Below, piece after piece: positions 9,615 through 16,368 of a stretch of DNA of 31,527 nucleotides (within the stretch, counting starts at the first letter, position 1; each line of letters opens with the position of its first letter). The notes beneath the pieces are model-generated. The model made no database searches. It had not been told where the DNA came from and worked only from the letters and a program-made list of their open reading frames with translations. Source of the DNA: Armatimonadota bacterium (GTDB lineage: Bacteria > Armatimonadota > Armatimonadia > Armatimonadales > Capsulimonadaceae); contig JANOOM010000638.1 in the NCBI GenBank assembly GCA_031421335.1, positions 1 to 31,527 of the forward strand, read 5' to 3'. The translations under genes were made by a program, and so were the position numbers.

Positions 9615-10415
9615 TCACTTCTTGCGGGCGCTGGTCCGCGCCGGGCGGCGGCGGATGGCGAGCACGGCGACGTCGTCGTGGAACTCGCCCCGGCAGAAGG
9701 CGGAAACGCGGCGCAATAGGGTGGCGACCAGGCGGCCCAGTGCGAGTGGGGCAACGCGGGCGAACAGGGTCTTGAGGCGGTCTATCCCCAGCCACTCCAG
9801 CCGGGACTGCGGCGGGTGCGCGTCGGAAACGCCGTCGGTGTAGAGGAGGAGGGTACCGCCGGCCGGCACGTTCGCCTCGTACTGCTCGAAGCGGGCCATG
9901 GCGGGCGGGAAAGCGCCGACCGGCGGCCCGGTCCCGACCAGCTCCTCTACGGCCTCGGGGCCGCGCGTCCCCGCAGCGGCGATCAGGGCCGGCTCGTGGC
10001 CGCCACTGGCATAGGTCAGCCGTCCGGTCCCGGCTTCAAGCCTACCGACGAAGACGGTGCCGAAGCCCTCGAAATGGGGGTCCGGCTCGATCATAGCATT
10101 GACGGCGGACAGGGTCTCGGCGGGCGAAAGGCCAACCGTGATGCAGTCGGAGATCAAAGCGCGCATGTGCTCAGCCTGGAGTGCCTGCTCCGGCCCATGC
10201 CCCGCCACGTCGCCGATGACGATGGCGACATCGCCCGCTTCCCCTTCGAGCGCGAAGGCGCTGTAGAAATCGCCACCCAAGGGCGGTGTTGCGGGCTGAT
10301 CGGCGTGGGCGACGGTATATTCTCGGGAGAGTGTCTCCTGGTCCTGTCGCGGTGCGAGCATCTCTTCTGGTGCGGGCATCTCTTCTGGTGGTAGTTGCTC
10401 AATCATTTCAGTCAC
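9615..10415 (-). CDS. PP2C/SpoIIE-family (RsbU-like) protein phosphatase, no sensor domain
   Basis: Motifs GGDFY, IGDVAGHG, SGGHEP, LLYTDGV and DDVAVL. Confidence 0.9.
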   Translation of the reverse strand: MTEMIEQLPPEEMPAPEEMLAPRQDQETLSREYTVAHADQPATPPLGGDFYSAFALEGEAGDVAIVIGDVAGHGPEQALQAEHMRALISDCITVGLSPAETLSAVNAMIEPDPHFEGFGTVFVGRLEAGTGRLTYASGGHEPALIAAAGTRGPEAVEELVGTGPPVGAFPPAMARFEQYEANVPAGGTLLLYTDGVSDAHPPQSRLEWLGIDRLKTLFARVAPLALGRLVATLLRRVSAFCRGEFHDDVAVLAIRRRPARTSARKK

Positions 10416-10482
10416 AGTATAACACAGATTTGGGGGTTATGCTACGAGGCGAGGTGTTTTCAGCCAGCCTCCTGAAGATGAC

Positions 10483-10521
10483 CTCGTAAGCCTATCTCGT
10501 GAGCCTATCTCATAAGCCTAT
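10483..10521 (+). repeat. Three 13-bp tandem direct repeats in the divergent intergenic region
   Basis: CTCGTAAGCCTAT / CTCGTGAGCCTAT / CTCATAAGCCTAT. Confidence 0.85.
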
Positions 10522-10553
10522 AGAGAGTGTGCTAACACTCCGATAATTGTCAG

Positions 10554-13500
10554 GTGATGCTAAATACTCTACTTTCCCACCCCAGTTCATCCAAGGAATC
10601 TTCCGAGACGTCCCACCCACGCACTCTGGGATGGATGGGAACGACTGCGCTGGCAATGGGGGGCAGTAACCAAAGCCTGTTTATTATCGGTGCGCTGATT
10701 ATCGGTCAGGGCAATATCCATGGACAGGGCAGCGCCGCGATCCCTTTGCTGCTCTTAGGGCTGCTTTTGGGCTGGATGGCCGCGCCGGGCTGGATCGAAC
10801 TGGTCCTGATGTGGCCCAATCGCGTGGGAGGCATCGCGGCGACCTGTGCAGAGGCGTTTCGTCCTTACAGTCCCGTTCTCGCCAATCTTGCCGGGACATG
10901 CTATTGGTGGGGATGGATTCCGACCTGTGGGCTGACGGCACTGCTGTCCGCATCGGCCATTCATCAGTGGTACTTACCGCTTGTCCCAGTCCCCGCTCTC
11001 GCCTGTGGACTGGTCCTGCTATTCGCAGCCATCAACCTATGCGGCGTTCGATGGGTCACGCGGATGACGGTGCCTATTGCCGCCGGCTCGGCGGGCCTGG
11101 CCTTTTTGTCGGCGCTTGTTCCAGTGCTGACCGGCCATGTAGATTGGCATCAAGCAACGACGTTCCACCTGACCATTCCCTTCTCCGGGCTGTTCGGCAG
11201 CTTGACCAGCTTCATGGCGGGGCTTTACCTCGTCGGGTTTGCCGCGCCGGCTTTTGAGGCGGCTGCCTGCCATGTCGGGGAAACGATCGATCCGGTGAGG
11301 AATGTCCCACGCGCCATGTTCGCATCAGGCGCCATGGCAACGCTGTTCTTCGGCATTCTGCCTGTCATCTGGCTGGGAACACTCGGTTCCGAGGCTCTGG
11401 GCGGGGACCTCGCGCAGACTCTCGGGCCGACATTCGCGCCGCTCTTCGGGAGCGCTGCCAAGGCGGCTGCGATCTGGTTCATGATGCTGAATATGTTCCA
11501 CGGGACCATCCAGCCGCTCGCGGGAGCATCCCGAACGCTGGCGCAGTTGGCCGAAGATGGCTTGCTGCCACAGATCCTCGCCCGGCGTCTTCGCACGGAT
11601 GCGCCCTGGGTGGCGACGGCGCTGACAGCAGGCATGGCGATCGCTTTTCTGCTGGCGGGTGATCCGATCTGGCTGGTGGCAGCGGCGAACCTGACTTATC
11701 TTATCGGCATTTGTCTGCCTAACATTGCGGTTTGGCTGCTCCGGCGCGATGCGCCTGAGATACGCCGGCCCTGGCGCGCGCCGCGCGGGACAATCGAGCT
11801 GGGCGTGGCGGCTTCTCTGGTGTGGCTGGCGGCGACGATCCTCGGCTTTGAGCAGTTTGGGCTGCCGACCGTCTTGGCTGGACTGGCACTGGCATATTCC
11901 GGGTCCGTCTTCTATGCCGTCCGCTGCTGGCAGGACCGGCGCGGACGGAACATTCGGAAATATGCCTGGTCACTCCATACCAAATTAACGGGATCCATGC
12001 TCCTCGTGCTGACCCTAGACGGCGTCGGGTACTTTTTGGCGATCCGCAGCGTCCATACCGGACACCCGGAGTGGATCGCGGCCCTGGAAGACATCTTCGT
12101 CGCCGTCGCGCTGCTGACGATCTCGGTCGGGCTGATTTTGCCGGGGATGATCGGCCACGCGATGGAAGAAGTGGCCCAAGCCGCACGGCGGCTGGCAACG
12201 GGAACGCTCACCGACTTTTCGCGCGCCATGGCGGCGCTCGGGCGAGGCGATTTGGATGGGGCCTATGCACGGGTGGACATCACACCGGTTCGCGTACATT
12301 CACACGACGAAGTGGGAGAAATGGCGGACAGCTTCAATTTGATGCAGGGGGAGATCATCCAGGCCGCCCAGGGACTTTCGAACGCCCGCGAAGGCCTGCG
12401 GACTGCCAACACTGTTCTGGAAACACGGATGGTCGAGTTGCACGAAAGTCGAGAGCGTTTCGAGATCGCCGTTCAAGGCTCCCGCGATGGTTTATGGGAC
12501 TGGGACATACAACGCGGCACCGTCTATTTCTCGCCACGATGGAAAGCGATTCTCGGCTATGAAGACGATGAAATTGTCAACCAACCCGGCAACTGGATAA
12601 AGCACGTCTGTCCTGAAGACCGGCATCTGGTGCAAACAGCGGTGGATGACTATTTAAGCGGAATCCAGCCCAATTACGAGATAGAGTTCCGTATGCGGCA
12701 CAAAGACGGCGGAGTGCGCTGGGTGCTTGCGCGTGGTGTCGCCCTGCGCGACTCCGCAGGGCGGGCGTGCCGGATGGCAGGGTCACACACGGATATCACC
12801 GGGCGCAAGAGGGCGGAGCAGGAGCTTCTGGCGGCCAAATCCGCAGCAGAAGCGGCTTCGCAGGCTAAAAGCCTCTTCCTCGCCAACATGAGCCATGAGC
12901 TGCGAACCCCTATGAACGCGATCATCGGCTTCTCCGAGCTGCTGCAAGACCAGGTGTTCGGTGAGATGAATGCGCGTCAGACTAAGTATGTAGGCAACAT
13001 CTCGACCAGTGGCAAGCACTTGCTTCAGCTCATCAACGACATTCTGGACCTGTCCAAAGTGGAGTCAGGGCACATGGAACTGTTTGTACAGGCAGTGGAG
13101 GTATCCGAAGTCCTGCGGGGCGTCATTGCCGTCGCACAAGGGCTCGCTACTAAGAAACAGGTGGCGCTGACGCTGGCCGTCGAAGAGGAACTGCCGCCAC
13201 TGATGGCCGACCCGGCACGTCTCAAGCAGATTCTCTACAACCTGCTCTCAAACGCCGTCAAGTTCACCCCCCAAGGCGGGCAGGTGACAGTCGAAGCGCG
13301 CCTTGTCAATGGCTTGCTGGAAGTCTCCGTTTGTGATAGCGGGATCGGGCTGCGTCCCGAAGATCGGGAGCGTATCTTCGGTCAGTTCGAGCAAGTCGAC
13401 TCGACTTATACCCGTCTTCAGCAGGGTACAGGATTGGGGCTATCTTTGACCCGTCGGATGGTGGCGATGCACGGCGGAGAAATCTGGGTGGAAAGTGAGG

Positions 13501-13634
13501 GGCCGGGTTTGGGTTCGACCTTCCGGTTCACGCTGCCGCTCACGCTGCTGCTCACGCTGCCGCTCACGCTTCTAGAAGCATCATCAAACACGTTCCTGCC
13601 AGAAACACTCCCAGCACTGCGCTTGGCCGCGTAG
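10554..13634 (+). CDS. APC-superfamily amino-acid-permease domain fused to HAMP, PAS/PAC and histidine kinase domains
   Basis: About 450 aa with roughly 12 hydrophobic segments (TM1-like ALAMGGSN, GFAAPAFEAAAC, SRTLAQLAEDGLLP), then 2 more TMs. HAMP-like segment DEVGEMADSFNLM, PAS (GSRDGLWDWD...WIKHVCPEDR), H-box SHELRTPMN, N-box NLLSNAVKFT, G1 DSGIG, G2 GTGLGL. Confidence 0.88.
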   Translation: MMLNTLLSHPSSSKESSETSHPRTLGWMGTTALAMGGSNQSLFIIGALIIGQGNIHGQGSAAIPLLLLGLLLGWMAAPGWIELVLMWPNRVGGIAATCAEAFRPYSPVLANLAGTCYWWGWIPTCGLTALLSASAIHQWYLPLVPVPALACGLVLLFAAINLCGVRWVTRMTVPIAAGSAGLAFLSALVPVLTGHVDWHQATTFHLTIPFSGLFGSLTSFMAGLYLVGFAAPAFEAAACHVGETIDPVRNVPRAMFASGAMATLFFGILPVIWLGTLGSEALGGDLAQTLGPTFAPLFGSAAKAAAIWFMMLNMFHGTIQPLAGASRTLAQLAEDGLLPQILARRLRTDAPWVATALTAGMAIAFLLAGDPIWLVAAANLTYLIGICLPNIAVWLLRRDAPEIRRPWRAPRGTIELGVAASLVWLAATILGFEQFGLPTVLAGLALAYSGSVFYAVRCWQDRRGRNIRKYAWSLHTKLTGSMLLVLTLDGVGYFLAIRSVHTGHPEWIAALEDIFVAVALLTISVGLILPGMIGHAMEEVAQAARRLATGTLTDFSRAMAALGRGDLDGAYARVDITPVRVHSHDEVGEMADSFNLMQGEIIQAAQGLSNAREGLRTANTVLETRMVELHESRERFEIAVQGSRDGLWDWDIQRGTVYFSPRWKAILGYEDDEIVNQPGNWIKHVCPEDRHLVQTAVDDYLSGIQPNYEIEFRMRHKDGGVRWVLARGVALRDSAGRACRMAGSHTDITGRKRAEQELLAAKSAAEAASQAKSLFLANMSHELRTPMNAIIGFSELLQDQVFGEMNARQTKYVGNISTSGKHLLQLINDILDLSKVESGHMELFVQAVEVSEVLRGVIAVAQGLATKKQVALTLAVEEELPPLMADPARLKQILYNLLSNAVKFTPQGGQVTVEARLVNGLLEVSVCDSGIGLRPEDRERIFGQFEQVDSTYTRLQQGTGLGLSLTRRMVAMHGGEIWVESEGPGLGSTFRFTLPLTLLLTLPLTLLEASSNTFLPETLPALRLAA

Positions 13635-13640
13635 GAAGGT

Positions 13641-14036
13641 ATGACCCCGATGACAATGCACACGATCTTGATCGTTGAAGACAATCCATTTAACATGGAA
13701 CTAGCGACCGACGTTCTGGAACACGTCGGCTTTGCCGTCAGACAGGCCACGACAGGCGAGGCCGGAATTGCCGAAGCGCTCCGGCTACCGCCGGACCTTA
13801 TTCTGATGGATGTCGCTCTGCCCGGCATGGACGGTTTGACAGCGACATATCAACTCAAGCAAAACCCACAGACGCGCGCTATCCCAATCGTCTTCCTGAC
13901 GTCCCATGCCATGTACGGCGATAAGGACCGGGCGCTGGCGGCAGGTGGCGCACTTTATCTGACCAAGCCACTCAACACACGCACCCTCGCCGATACGCTC
14001 CGGGCAGTCCTGGCAGGTCAAGAGAGGAAGTCATGA
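13641..14036 (+). CDS. Single-domain response regulator (CheY/DivK-like)
   Basis: ILIVEDN, LILMDVALPGMDG (phosphoacceptor Asp), LTS, LTKP. Confidence 0.92.
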   Translation: MTPMTMHTILIVEDNPFNMELATDVLEHVGFAVRQATTGEAGIAEALRLPPDLILMDVALPGMDGLTATYQLKQNPQTRAIPIVFLTSHAMYGDKDRALAAGGALYLTKPLNTRTLADTLRAVLAGQERKS

Positions 14037-15163
14037 CTATCACCCAAAAGCGGATTCTGCTTGTTGACGATGAAGAATTCAACCGGGAACTGTTGGCTGC
14101 GCAGTTGGAATCGCTGGGGCATGTCTGGGAAGAAGCACAGAGCGGGGCGGAGGCCCTGGCGCTCCTGGACAAGCGCTTCGACCTCCTGCTGGTGGATGGG
14201 ATGATGCCGGAGATGGACGGGTTTGAACTGGTGTCACAGATCCGCGCCCAAGAGGACTACAAAGATGTGCCGATCATTATGGTCACTGCGCTCAACAGCC
14301 ATCAGGACCGGATGAAGGCGGTGGAAGCGGGTGCGAATGATTTCATCACCAAACCGGTTGACCGGCACGAGCTTCATGTGCGGACCGAATGCATGCTCAA
14401 GATGAAAGCAGCCCAAGACGCCGTCAAGAACCATCAGGCCGATTTGGAACGCATGATAGCAGCACGGACTTCCGACCTGCAAAATGCGATGAGCGAAGTC
14501 GTCCTGGGGCGCCAGCAGATCTACGAGGCGCAGCTTGACACGATCCATCGCCTGGCCCTGGCCGCCGAGCATCGTGACGAGCATACCGCCTCACATATTC
14601 ACCGCGTCAGCCACTACTGCGGCCTGTTAGCCTGGGCGCTGGACCTGCCGGCGGACGAAACGGAGCATATCCAGCAGGGCAGCATCATGCACGATGTCGG
14701 CAAGATAGGCATCCCCGACTCGATCCTGCTGAAAGAGGGACGGTTGGGCGATGCCGAACGCGGTGTCATGGAGCAGCACACGATCATCGGGGCGGACATT
14801 CTGTGCGGGTCTTCCTCGAAGCTGCTCCAGATGGGCGAGATCATCGCCCTGACGCACCATGAAAAGTGGGACGGCAGCGGTTACCCGCATGGGCTAAAGG
14901 GGGAAGCCATCCCCCTTCATGGCCGCATCTGCGCCGTCGCCGATGTCTTCGATGCCTTGACAAGCCGGCGTCCTTACAAGAAAGCCTACACGCGCAGTGA
15001 GTCGCGCGAGATTCTATGCCAGGGCTATGGGACCCACTTCGACCCCCGGATATTGGATCTCTTCTTGGCGAACTTCGAAGTCGTGGAGGTGATTCAGAAC
15101 CGATACGGTGACGGAGAGGGAGTCGAGGAAACAAGCGACTTGATGACAACCCTGCACTTGTAG
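14033..15163 (+). CDS. REC-HD-GYP response regulator (RpfG-like putative cyclic di-GMP phosphodiesterase)
   Basis: Receiver (LLVDD, LLVDGMMPEMDG, FITKP), then HDVGKIG, HHEKWDGSGYP and AVADVFDAL...RPYK. ATGA overlap with the upstream gene. Confidence 0.92.
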   Translation: MTITQKRILLVDDEEFNRELLAAQLESLGHVWEEAQSGAEALALLDKRFDLLLVDGMMPEMDGFELVSQIRAQEDYKDVPIIMVTALNSHQDRMKAVEAGANDFITKPVDRHELHVRTECMLKMKAAQDAVKNHQADLERMIAARTSDLQNAMSEVVLGRQQIYEAQLDTIHRLALAAEHRDEHTASHIHRVSHYCGLLAWALDLPADETEHIQQGSIMHDVGKIGIPDSILLKEGRLGDAERGVMEQHTIIGADILCGSSSKLLQMGEIIALTHHEKWDGSGYPHGLKGEAIPLHGRICAVADVFDALTSRRPYKKAYTRSESREILCQGYGTHFDPRILDLFLANFEVVEVIQNRYGDGEGVEETSDLMTTLHL

Positions 15164-15187
15164 AAGGGCAGCAGGAAGCTGCCTACC

Positions 15188-15376
15188 CTACTCCCCCCAC
15201 CGCCGAACGGCCGGCGAAAACCTGAGTGTAAAAGCCTTCCAACTGCGCCGTGATTGCCGCCCATCCATATTTACGTTATAACACAGGTCATTGACGACCC
15301 CATAGAGGACGGCCACCAGAGTCACTAGGCCGGTCCAGAGGAGCGCCGCTCCGAGGCGCACCGAGGCTGTCTTCAC
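15188..15376 (-). CDS. Small membrane protein, possibly 3'-disrupted
   Basis: The GTG start overlaps the GT2 stop (GTGA). One TM helix. The 3' half runs into lower-GC sequence. Confidence 0.45.
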   Translation of the reverse strand: MKTASVRLGAALLWTGLVTLVAVLYGVVNDLCYNVNMDGRQSRRSWKAFTLRFSPAVRRWGE

Positions 15377-16368
15377 GGGCAGGACTGGCTCAACACCAGC
15401 CGCCGCATCTCGGAGCGCGCGCCGATCTCCGACTGTGCCCCTTCAAGGTAGCGAAGATTGTAGATGACGCTAAGGGCGGCGAAAGCCGGCCCGGCCCGGC
15501 GGGCACGGTAGGCTACCGTGGCGGCGCCGAGCAGCAGGGCGCGCAGGGGCGCACTCAGAGGCGGGGCGGCTAGGGCGAGGTCGGCGAGGCGGCGGGTGAG
15601 GACGTTCCGGGCGTGGTAGCCGTGGCGAACGGTCTGCCAGGGGGTGTCGCCCCGGCGGGCGCGGACGACATCGAGCTGCCCGTAAGCGTGGGGCACGGCC
15701 AGCCAGGACGCGAAGCGGCGGTGGGGGCGATGAACACCCCGCGCCTGAGGGTCATGGACGAAGCGGACGCCGCACTGCCTTTCCAGGCGGACGGCAAGTT
15801 CGACGTCTTCCTGGCGCGGGAAATGCTCGTCGAAGCCGCCGACGGCTTGCAGGTGTTCGCGGCGCACGGAGGCGTTGCCGGAATAAAAGTGGTGTGGGCC
15901 ACAGCCCTCCCACTCACCGGTGCGCCAGGCAGTATATTGCTTTTCCAGCATGGCGTGTTCCCAGGCGATCCAGGGTGGCTCTTGCCACTGCAAAGCGGGG
16001 TCGGGCAGCATCGGGCCGATGACGACTTCTTTGTCTGCGCCGGCATGGTGGGCGGCGTGGCGTATCAGGAAGTCCGGGACGGGTTCCACATCGTCGTCCA
16101 GGAAGACGACGACGGTCCCGCGCGCCTCCCGGATGCCCCGGTTGCGGGCGCGGGCCGGGCCGCCGTTTTCCTGCGTGATGGGGCGCAGCGCGAACGAGGC
16201 GGTTTGGGCGTACTCGGCCAGCAGGGCGCTGGTGCCATCTGTGCTGCCGTCGGAAACGACGATGGCCTCGAAAGAGTCCGGGGAACACGACTGGCGGGCC
16301 AGGCCGTCCAAGGTGACCCGGAGGCTGTCCTTGCGGTTGAAGGTGGGGATGACGACGCTCAAGAACAT
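15373..16368 (-). CDS. Glycosyltransferase family 2
   Basis: [33 protein letters not shown] (DXD), FYSGNAS, EDVEL. Start placed at the ATG at 16368. Confidence 0.9.

Follow-up and report, generated by a model that had tools for sequence, protein, structure and literature searches.

The proteins described as bacterial 'transceptors' are CbrA and CrbS (MxtR), found in Pseudomonas and Vibrio (PMC13022988, PMC5715377). The SLC5 domain of CbrA transports histidine, and recent papers still call CbrA a 'rare' transceptor (PMC13022988). One review of prokaryotic transceptors makes no mention of the APC family. A second group of receptors is built on the Amt fold, where Ks-Amt5 is an Amt-histidine kinase (PMC5764959) and Sd-Amt1 is an Amt-HAMP-GGDEF diguanylate cyclase, in which the transporter fold is coupled through HAMP (PMC11152129). 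Both Ks-Amt5 and Sd-Amt1 bind but barely translocate ammonium (PMC11152129, PMC8534201). The gene analysed here, at positions 10554-13634 of contig JANOOM010000638.1 from an Armatimonadota bacterium of the Capsulimonadaceae (GCA_031421335.1), encodes a permease-type domain and a histidine kinase in one protein. The whole stretch of 31,527 nucleotides (nt) that was analysed is referred to as the window.

The reading we prefer, and regard as probable, is that this protein is a membrane receptor histidine kinase that has a complete 12-helix APC (LeuT-fold) domain as its input and no periplasmic sensor domain. A first-pass annotation, made from the sequence, had proposed a fusion of this kind as a candidate transceptor.

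A permease-type domain and a histidine kinase in one reading frame

The open reading frame (ORF) listing of the window gives a single uninterrupted ORF at 10554-13634 (+), of 1026 amino acids (aa). The GTG at 10554 is directly followed by an ATG at 10557, which is the probable true start because it lines up with the start of an 86%-identical relative. An N-terminal 'HPRTLGW' stretch is kept in all homologues, and a shorter gene call starting at Met28 is therefore too short. The features of the gene are given below, where TM denotes a transmembrane helix, A1 the wider alignment of the family, and A2 a closer set.

10554-13634 (+): sensor kinase with APC-fold module, two TM, HAMP, PAS, HisKA, and HATPase_c; 1026 aa, probable start ATG 10557
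aa 25-429 (+): AA_permease_2 (PF13520); Pfam E 4.9e-31, 108.5 bits against a cut-off of 27, 405 of 427 profile positions
10611-11948 (+): predicted APC/LeuT-fold core, 12 TM helices, aa 20-465; Pfam, AlphaFold2, Foldseek, and structural re-alignment
10659-10676 (+): predicted unwound TM1 segment GGSNQS, aa 36-41; model helix break at 38/41, invariant in A2
10902-10916 (+): TM3 aromatic motif YWWGW, aa 117-121; invariant in A2, with Y117 nearly invariant in A1
11235-11258 (+): predicted unwound TM6 segment GFAAPAFE, aa 228-235, including E235; helix break at 227/231, invariant columns
11973-12185 (+): extra helices TM13-TM14, aa 474-544; hydropathy, models, and conservation
12195-12356 (+): HAMP with a long connector, aa 548-601; Pfam 30.8 bits, model helices 505-563 and 586-639
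12357-12470 (+): predicted signalling helix continuing the second HAMP helix (AS2), aa 602-639; full-length model
12489-12794 (+): PAS domain, aa 646-747; Pfam PAS_3 and model
12864-13070 (+): HisKA/dimerization and phosphotransfer (DHp) domain, aa 771-839, phospho-acceptor H781 (codon 12894-12896); Pfam and motifs
13209-13544 (+): HATPase_c, aa 886-997, with N, G1, F, and G2 boxes; Pfam and motifs
13548-13631 (+): C-terminal tail with LPLTLL repeats, aa 999-1026, predicted to be disordered; model

Beyond the permease domain, Pfam matches HAMP at aa 548-601 (30.8 bits against a cut-off of 25), PAS_3 at aa 657-744 (E 6.7e-26), HisKA at aa 771-839 (E 8e-22, 77 bits), and HATPase_c at aa 886-997 (E 4e-30, 105 bits), which is exactly the series of five domains named in the first-pass annotation. 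The kinase had also been called intact, and indeed all of its motifs are found: the H-box SHELRTP (H781), the N-box LLSNAVKFT, G1 DSGIGL, the F-box FGQF, and G2 GTGLGL. Judged by these motifs, the C-terminal part is a class I (HisKA) sensor histidine kinase with a complete catalytic set.

The window comes from a fragmented metagenome-assembled genome (MAG) of 826 contigs, and it might be argued that separate permease and kinase genes have here been joined through a chimeric contig, a sequencing error, or the gene calling. When public-run contigs were compared over window positions 10300-15400, however, contigs from four independent runs (three studies; two of the runs metatranscriptomic) bridged the permease/HAMP junction at approximately nt 12189, namely X19 (10956-12874), X20 (11105-14737), X6 (11649-13557), and X12 (12093-13557). 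These differ from the window by substitutions only, the sole indel being a deletion of 24 nt in the metatranscriptome contig X20, which keeps the frame and starts at 13528 in the repetitive C-terminal region, just ahead of the stretch listed above as the tail. No stop or frameshift separates permease from kinase in the junction contigs, which bears out the description of the two as one ORF. An uninterrupted gene of 86% identity, with the same neighbours, is present on a closed Capsulimonadaceae chromosome of 6.18 Mb, and the same gene is found in hundreds of genomes, such that an artefact is scarcely conceivable. This is a real and intact gene. The cassette sequence is present in many glacier, ice, and sediment metagenomes (nine studies) and in two metatranscriptomic libraries.

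The Capsulimonadaceae organism itself recurs in glacier, ice, and sediment metagenomes of nine studies from 2017-2025, and appears to be a widespread cryosphere bacterium.

In the hydropathy profile the permease part has about 12 hydrophobic helices, followed by two further ones (478-500 and 510-538). Residues 1-545 were modelled with AlphaFold2 on the basis of 56 family members, giving a mean predicted local distance difference test (pLDDT) score of 91.3 and a predicted TM-score (pTM) of 0.90. In this model TM1 is broken at 38/41 and TM6 at 227/231. Discontinuous TM1 and TM6 helices are a hallmark of the LeuT/APC fold. The best Foldseek matches in the PDB are LAT1, y+LAT1, AdiC, BasC, Asc1, GkApcT, and ApcT, with target-normalised TM-scores of 0.72-0.81, and structural re-alignment to y+LAT1, LAT1, Asc1, AdiC, and ApcT reaches Z of 35-39 across 400-425 residues and takes in model residues ~19-468, hence all twelve helices. 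Across the SLC7 and bacterial APC carriers as a set, Z ranges from 33 to 39, again with all 12 helices. A single-sequence phmmer search of the PDB sequences gave no match, and only the family profile reached the SLC7 chains (xCT E 5e-26; y+LAT; LAT1 ~1e-15) and, beyond them, GkApcT (1e-13) and AdiC (1e-7). On the model, the N-terminal region is predicted to adopt the complete APC/LeuT fold, with 12 TM and a core of the 5+5 inverted-repeat type, in agreement with the earlier proposal of an apparently complete APC-type transporter domain.

The models place the extra helices at 474-499 and 505 to ~538, so that hydropathy and models agree on the two additional TM that had been noted after the permease domain. 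In the full-length model (pLDDT 78), TM14 passes unbroken into the first HAMP helix (AS1), the two making up helix 505-563. The HAMP connector, at ~22 residues, is longer than usual, and to have called the linker 'elongated' was fair. AS2 extends as a 54-residue signalling helix, 586-639, and is followed by the PAS domain (646-747), the DHp helices (749-798 and 807-837), and then the catalytic (CA) domain. With HAMP placed directly after the last TM and AS1 continuous with it, the protein is modelled as a HAMP-coupled transmembrane receptor. The periplasmic loop between TM13 and TM14 is only ~5 residues by hydropathy and model, and the APC domain would therefore be the sole extracytoplasmic sensor.

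A family of signalling proteins with a conserved input

Among 34 full-length homologues, mean pairwise identity is 0.71 in the APC core, 0.65 in TM13-14, and 0.58 in HAMP, with 0.50 in the signalling helix, 0.32 in PAS, 0.50 in DHp, and 0.41 in CA. The most conserved part of the protein is the input unit and not the kinase, whereas in the usual situation it is the sensor domains that vary most. That the input is far more conserved than the outputs suggests that the APC domain, TM13-14, and HAMP are a single functional unit under strong constraint, and a sensor more conserved than its kinase points to one common signal. The invariant residues are A34, G36, G37, S38, N39, Q40, S41, and F43 in TM1; G114, Y117, W118, W119, G120, W121, P123, and T124 in TM3; and M221, G223 to E235, H240, and E243 in TM6. 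Conserved in TM13-14 are K477, G492, Y493, D513, F515, G526, and P530. The motifs of the putative site are invariant across outputs and phyla.

It had been suspected that similar fusions are already annotated in databases. Indeed this is a large annotated family and not a rare one, its proteins being labelled 'amino acid permease', 'ATP-binding protein', or 'PAS domain S-box protein'. At least 1,957 significant matches were obtained among the best 8,000 candidates when long proteins were searched by a word index. The best 120 of these at least 1,957 matches comprise 115 histidine kinases, mostly hybrids with a receiver and many with HPt, and 5 enzymes of cyclic di-GMP (c-di-GMP) metabolism, of which P0023, P0034, P0042, and P0101 are GGDEF-EAL proteins and P0047 is a PAS-GGDEF-HD-GYP protein.

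When the module alone was used in an exhaustive phmmer search of 1.84 billion representatives, 236 clusters were found at E<=1e-30. The matches that cover the whole module (~15-545) are all in proteins of 785-1539 aa, the remainder being fragments, and among the best 150 representatives none was a free-standing close relative of the module. Two candidates for such a relative were rejected: P0128 (574 aa), the cluster of which has a 905-aa member and a 'partial' record, and P0179 (526 aa), which on a long-read contig precedes short ORFs and a GGDEF/EAL ORF and is thus a frameshift-broken fusion. The apparent 526-aa stand-alone module on a long-read contig, at locus L084 (3001-7274), has behind it ORFs of 59 aa and 86 aa and then GGDEF/EAL ORFs, which looks like a fusion broken by frameshifts or assembly errors.

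In GTDB, taken as one genome per species, there are at least 470 stretches encoding the module in about ten phyla: Armatimonadota, Pseudomonadota, Verrucomicrobiota, Chloroflexota (Ktedonobacterales), Acidobacteriota, Myxococcota, Planctomycetota, Cyanobacteriota (Gloeobacterales), Dormibacterota, and Actinomycetota. The family is widespread in bacteria of soil, freshwater, and ice. Cultured carriers of an orthologue include Mesorhizobium sp. M2E.F.Ca.ET.219.01.1.1 and Verrucomicrobia bacterium IMCC26134. Nearer to the window the gene is accessory and patchily distributed, being carried by 5 of the 23 other species genomes in the window's own genus, by 4 of 200 other genomes in the phylum sample, and by none of the 16 genomes of the sister family. 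A maximum-likelihood tree of 81 modules has 13 changes of phylum label, where the minimum is 9 and shuffled labels give a mean of 37.6, and in it the window protein nests in a Capsulimonadaceae/Armatimonadota clade adjoining Chloroflexota.

Two copies carry labels at odds with their place in the tree. A 4.5-kb contig binned as 'Rhodospirillales' (L002, JAYTHH010000244.1) has an 88%-identical copy inside the Capsulimonadaceae clade, and a MAG labelled 'uncultured Klebsiella sp.' (L021, CAZKRY010000007.1) has a copy in the gammaproteobacterial clade. These are probably mis-binned or mislabelled rather than transfers.

The putative binding site

We take the Gly-(Ser/Ala/Thr)-Gly segment of TM1 in the SLC7 and AdiC structures to be the clamp for the substrate α-carboxylate. 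In the profile alignment, the G-A-G of xCT and its equivalent in y+LAT2 align to N39-Q40-(one-residue gap)-S41, and no Gly-x-Gly clamp is found in TM1 of the window protein in this alignment to xCT and y+LAT2. Asn-Gln-Ser stands in its place, and canonical α-amino-acid binding therefore looks unlikely, which leaves the suggestion that the protein senses amino acids in doubt. The TM3 Arg in the xCT segment 'LIIRPA', which presumably binds the distal carboxylate of the substrate, aligns to C116, directly before Y117-W118-W119-G120-W121. This YWWGW aromatic cluster would suit a cation-π ligand, such as an organic cation or a methylated amine.

The best NCBIfam model is that of the Methylocella silvestris trimethylamine N-oxide (TMAO) permease (NF053774), an equivalog that is matched over partial length, at residues 151-459 (TM4-TM12) with TM1-TM3 unmatched, and at 128 bits against a cut-off of 690. 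A free-standing APC permease of the same genome, used as a control, scores 212 bits on this model, also below the cut-off. A specific identity as a TMAO permease is rejected, as the score is far below the cut-off and an unrelated APC gene scores higher; the match therefore marks a broad APC branch and not TMAO specificity. Besides the window protein, a query of the genome with the module found no APC permease other than this control (G000 contig C215:12022-13248; L083 1447-2973), a protein of 508 aa that is 26% identical to the module and for which the TMAO-permease model is likewise the best NCBIfam match.

The Swiss-Prot structural neighbours are carriers of fructoselysine, branched-chain amino acids, lysine, polyamines, cystine, and Ser/Thr (among them FrlA, LAT2, BcaP, LysP, polyamine carriers, and xCT), all at 15-20% identity. 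A substrate class cannot be taken from them, all being equally distant. That homology to neighbours of so many substrates gives no ligand, and that PAS_3 sits between HAMP and the kinase, would be in keeping with an APC domain that is a membrane anchor, a dimerization scaffold, or a reporter of proton-motive force, pH, or lipid state, with PAS as the real chemical sensor. We consider this improbable, given an identity of 0.71 in the APC core against 0.32 in PAS. Many members without PAS nevertheless keep the APC domain, TM13-14, and HAMP, and the invariant residues cluster in the site elements of TM1, TM3, and TM6 and not on the surface.

A true transceptor like CbrA, in which the APC domain would import its substrate and the kinase would read the transport cycle or flux, has more in its favour. 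The core has all 12 TM, the two unwound ones included, and it bears a conserved Glu in TM6 as well as the DPxRNVPRA loop signature that is typical of working APC carriers, and the SLC5 domain of CbrA does transport its ligand (PMC13022988). Still, this appears unlikely. It would be unusual for working carriers to have no free-standing close relative, as is the case here among the best 150 representatives. The module is also joined to a variety of outputs, in the manner of a plug-in sensor, and the G-x-G clamp of TM1 is missing. Nor do retained motifs imply transport, as Ks-Amt5 keeps all transporter motifs yet translocates inefficiently (PMC8534201, PMC11152129).

Operon, proposed mechanism, and comparison with known systems

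Two further genes follow the kinase on the same strand.

13641-14036 (+): single-domain response regulator, 131 aa, with D57 and K109; 6 nt after the kinase stop
14033-15163 (+): receiver-HD-GYP protein, 376 aa; 4-nt overlap with the receiver gene; Pfam and motifs

The receiver-HD-GYP protein has D55, HD at 222-223, and HHEKWDGSGYP at 275-285, and matches HD_5 with 116 bits and Response_reg with 105 bits in Pfam; by domains and motifs it is of the c-di-GMP phosphodiesterase type. The order of kinase, receiver, and receiver-HD-GYP is kept in the 86% relative, and in both genomes the trio has a divergent SpoIIE/PP2C phosphatase gene on one side and a polysaccharide locus rich in glycosyltransferases on the other. 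A single 3.6-kb metatranscriptome contig spans all three genes. In P0047 the module, 78% identical to that of the window, is fused directly to PAS-GGDEF-HD-GYP, the HD-GYP of which is 41% identical to the HD-GYP encoded downstream here, and this fusion supports a functional link of this sensor branch with c-di-GMP turnover. Neighbourhoods were compared by all-against-all ORF clustering at 82 loci and by counting Pfam domains in the 64 genes directly downstream, of which 11 encode receivers and 6 encode further kinases.

The three genes have a GC content of 0.58-0.62 against 0.69-0.71 in the flanks, in the window and in the 86% relative alike. Recent horizontal insertion is rejected, as the relative has the same GC dip and position and the module tree mostly follows phyla. 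The low GC together with the patchy distribution instead suggests an old acquisition. An exact 10-bp direct repeat, TATAACACAG, at 10418-10427 and 15277-15286 brackets the cassette where the GC drops; it is absent from the 86% relative and may be due to chance or be lineage-specific. A promoter and terminator scan found nothing above shuffles. The SpoIIE/PP2C-type phosphatase gene, at 9615-10415 (-), is divergent and upstream of the kinase, with a counterpart in the same place in the relative (L001 7073-7849), and may be functionally linked with the kinase operon. In the relative, an XisH/XisI pair (L001 6221-6885; GC 0.54-0.61) lies between the GH31 and SpoIIE genes; it is absent from the window.

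For the receptor kinase that we favour, the following course may be proposed. A small solute would bind at the central site formed by unwound TM1 (GGSNQS), unwound TM6 (GFAAPAFE), and TM3 (YWWGW); a standard α-amino acid is improbable here, whereas a small amine or organic cation is possible. Binding would shift the outward/occluded/inward equilibrium of the fold, and the shift would pass through TM13-14 into HAMP, much as TM2 does this in classical HAMP receptors, by way of the helix in which TM14 and AS1 are predicted to be continuous. From there the signal would run down the signalling helix, through PAS, and on to the DHp/CA core, where it would alter autophosphorylation of H781. The phosphoryl group could then go to the presumably co-transcribed receiver (D57) and receiver-HD-GYP protein (D55), both of which we infer to be targets, changing c-di-GMP turnover, and the neighbouring Wzx/Wzy polysaccharide locus is a possible target of control. 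Both the role of the APC domain as ligand site and the route of coupling are inferred. As all close relatives are signalling proteins, we lean, partly by analogy with the Amt-like receptors, towards a dedicated receptor in which net transport is slight or absent.

Several points weigh against this account. The APC loop signature, DPVRNVPRA (aa 246-254) after the TM6 motif GFAAPAFE, and both unwound helices are retained, which would also be in keeping with real transport, and PAS could carry a second, cytoplasmic input. The lining of the pocket by the conserved motifs is putative, as it is drawn from the alignment to xCT and y+LAT2 and from the binding-site positions of known APC carriers. In the neighbourhoods of the 64 homologues there is no conserved metabolic gene, and no clue to the ligand. 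The polysaccharide locus is linked to the operon by adjacency only, and is convergent on the other strand. The gene is probably expressed, although the contigs from RNA libraries suggest transcription and do not prove it.

It may further be proposed, more tentatively and with slightly less than even confidence, that the APC domain, TM13-14, and HAMP are an ancient dedicated receptor module, the free transporter form of which has gone, and which perceives one invariant small molecule across about ten phyla. This would possibly be an organic cation or amine held by N-Q-S and YWWGW. If so, the module would be the APC-fold counterpart of the Amt ammonium receptors, with a new ligand-receptor pair. 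Were the ligand identified, two-component and c-di-GMP signalling would gain a new input, and there would be a tractable system for how the motion of a rocking-bundle carrier becomes a HAMP signal. In this genome there is a candidate three-gene route from an external solute to c-di-GMP breakdown, beside a polysaccharide locus, which may be relevant to biofilm life on ice.

The protein belongs to the APC superfamily and to the class I HisKA kinases. The concept of a carrier-fold sensor is already established, and databases hold many proteins of this architecture. Full-text searches of the literature found neither an APC-permease-kinase nor an APC-permease-GGDEF protein that had been characterised, and to this extent the earlier statement that no characterised example is known still holds. 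The first-pass annotation had set the protein against CbrA and CrbS, and the differences that it named, in the carrier and in STAC, are real, although its set of comparisons omitted the Amt receptors.

CbrA/CrbS and the Amt receptors are the known systems that come closest. Like the window protein, CbrA and CrbS have a complete LeuT-fold carrier N-terminal to PAS, DHp, and CA. Their carrier is a solute:sodium symporter (SLC5) of 13 TM, whereas here it is of the APC/AA_permease type with 12+2 TM, and their coupling is through a cytoplasmic STAC four-helix bundle, in place of which there are here two extra TM helices and HAMP. Pfam detects neither SSF nor STAC in the protein, and it is not of the CbrA/CrbS type. 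The Amt receptors are alike in using a transporter fold as the input of a kinase or c-di-GMP enzyme, in being modular with several outputs, and in keeping their transporter motifs, and Sd-Amt1 also uses HAMP. Their fold is unrelated, however, an 11 TM trimer with NH4+ as ligand as against the APC/LeuT fold, and the two additional TM helices between carrier fold and HAMP are not present in them.

Receptors of the APC fold without a fused kinase are the GerAB family of germinant receptor B subunits (TC 2.A.3.9) and yeast Ssy1 and Gap1. There too the APC fold perceives a nutrient rather than, or besides, importing it (for Gap1, see PMC11109136), but these receptors have no covalent two-component or c-di-GMP output, belong to other APC subfamilies, and have ordinary amino acids as ligands. 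The best profile and structure matches are the SLC7/LAT and bacterial APC carriers (xCT, y+LAT1/2, LAT1, Asc1, BasC, GkApcT, AdiC, and ApcT), from which the protein differs in an identity of only 12-20%, in the N-Q-S of TM1 and the YWWGW of TM3, and in the two extra TM helices and signalling C-terminus. Few bacterial transporter-fold receptors are understood, namely CbrA/CrbS, Ks-Amt5, and Sd-Amt1, and to these the family adds a third carrier fold and a different coupling.

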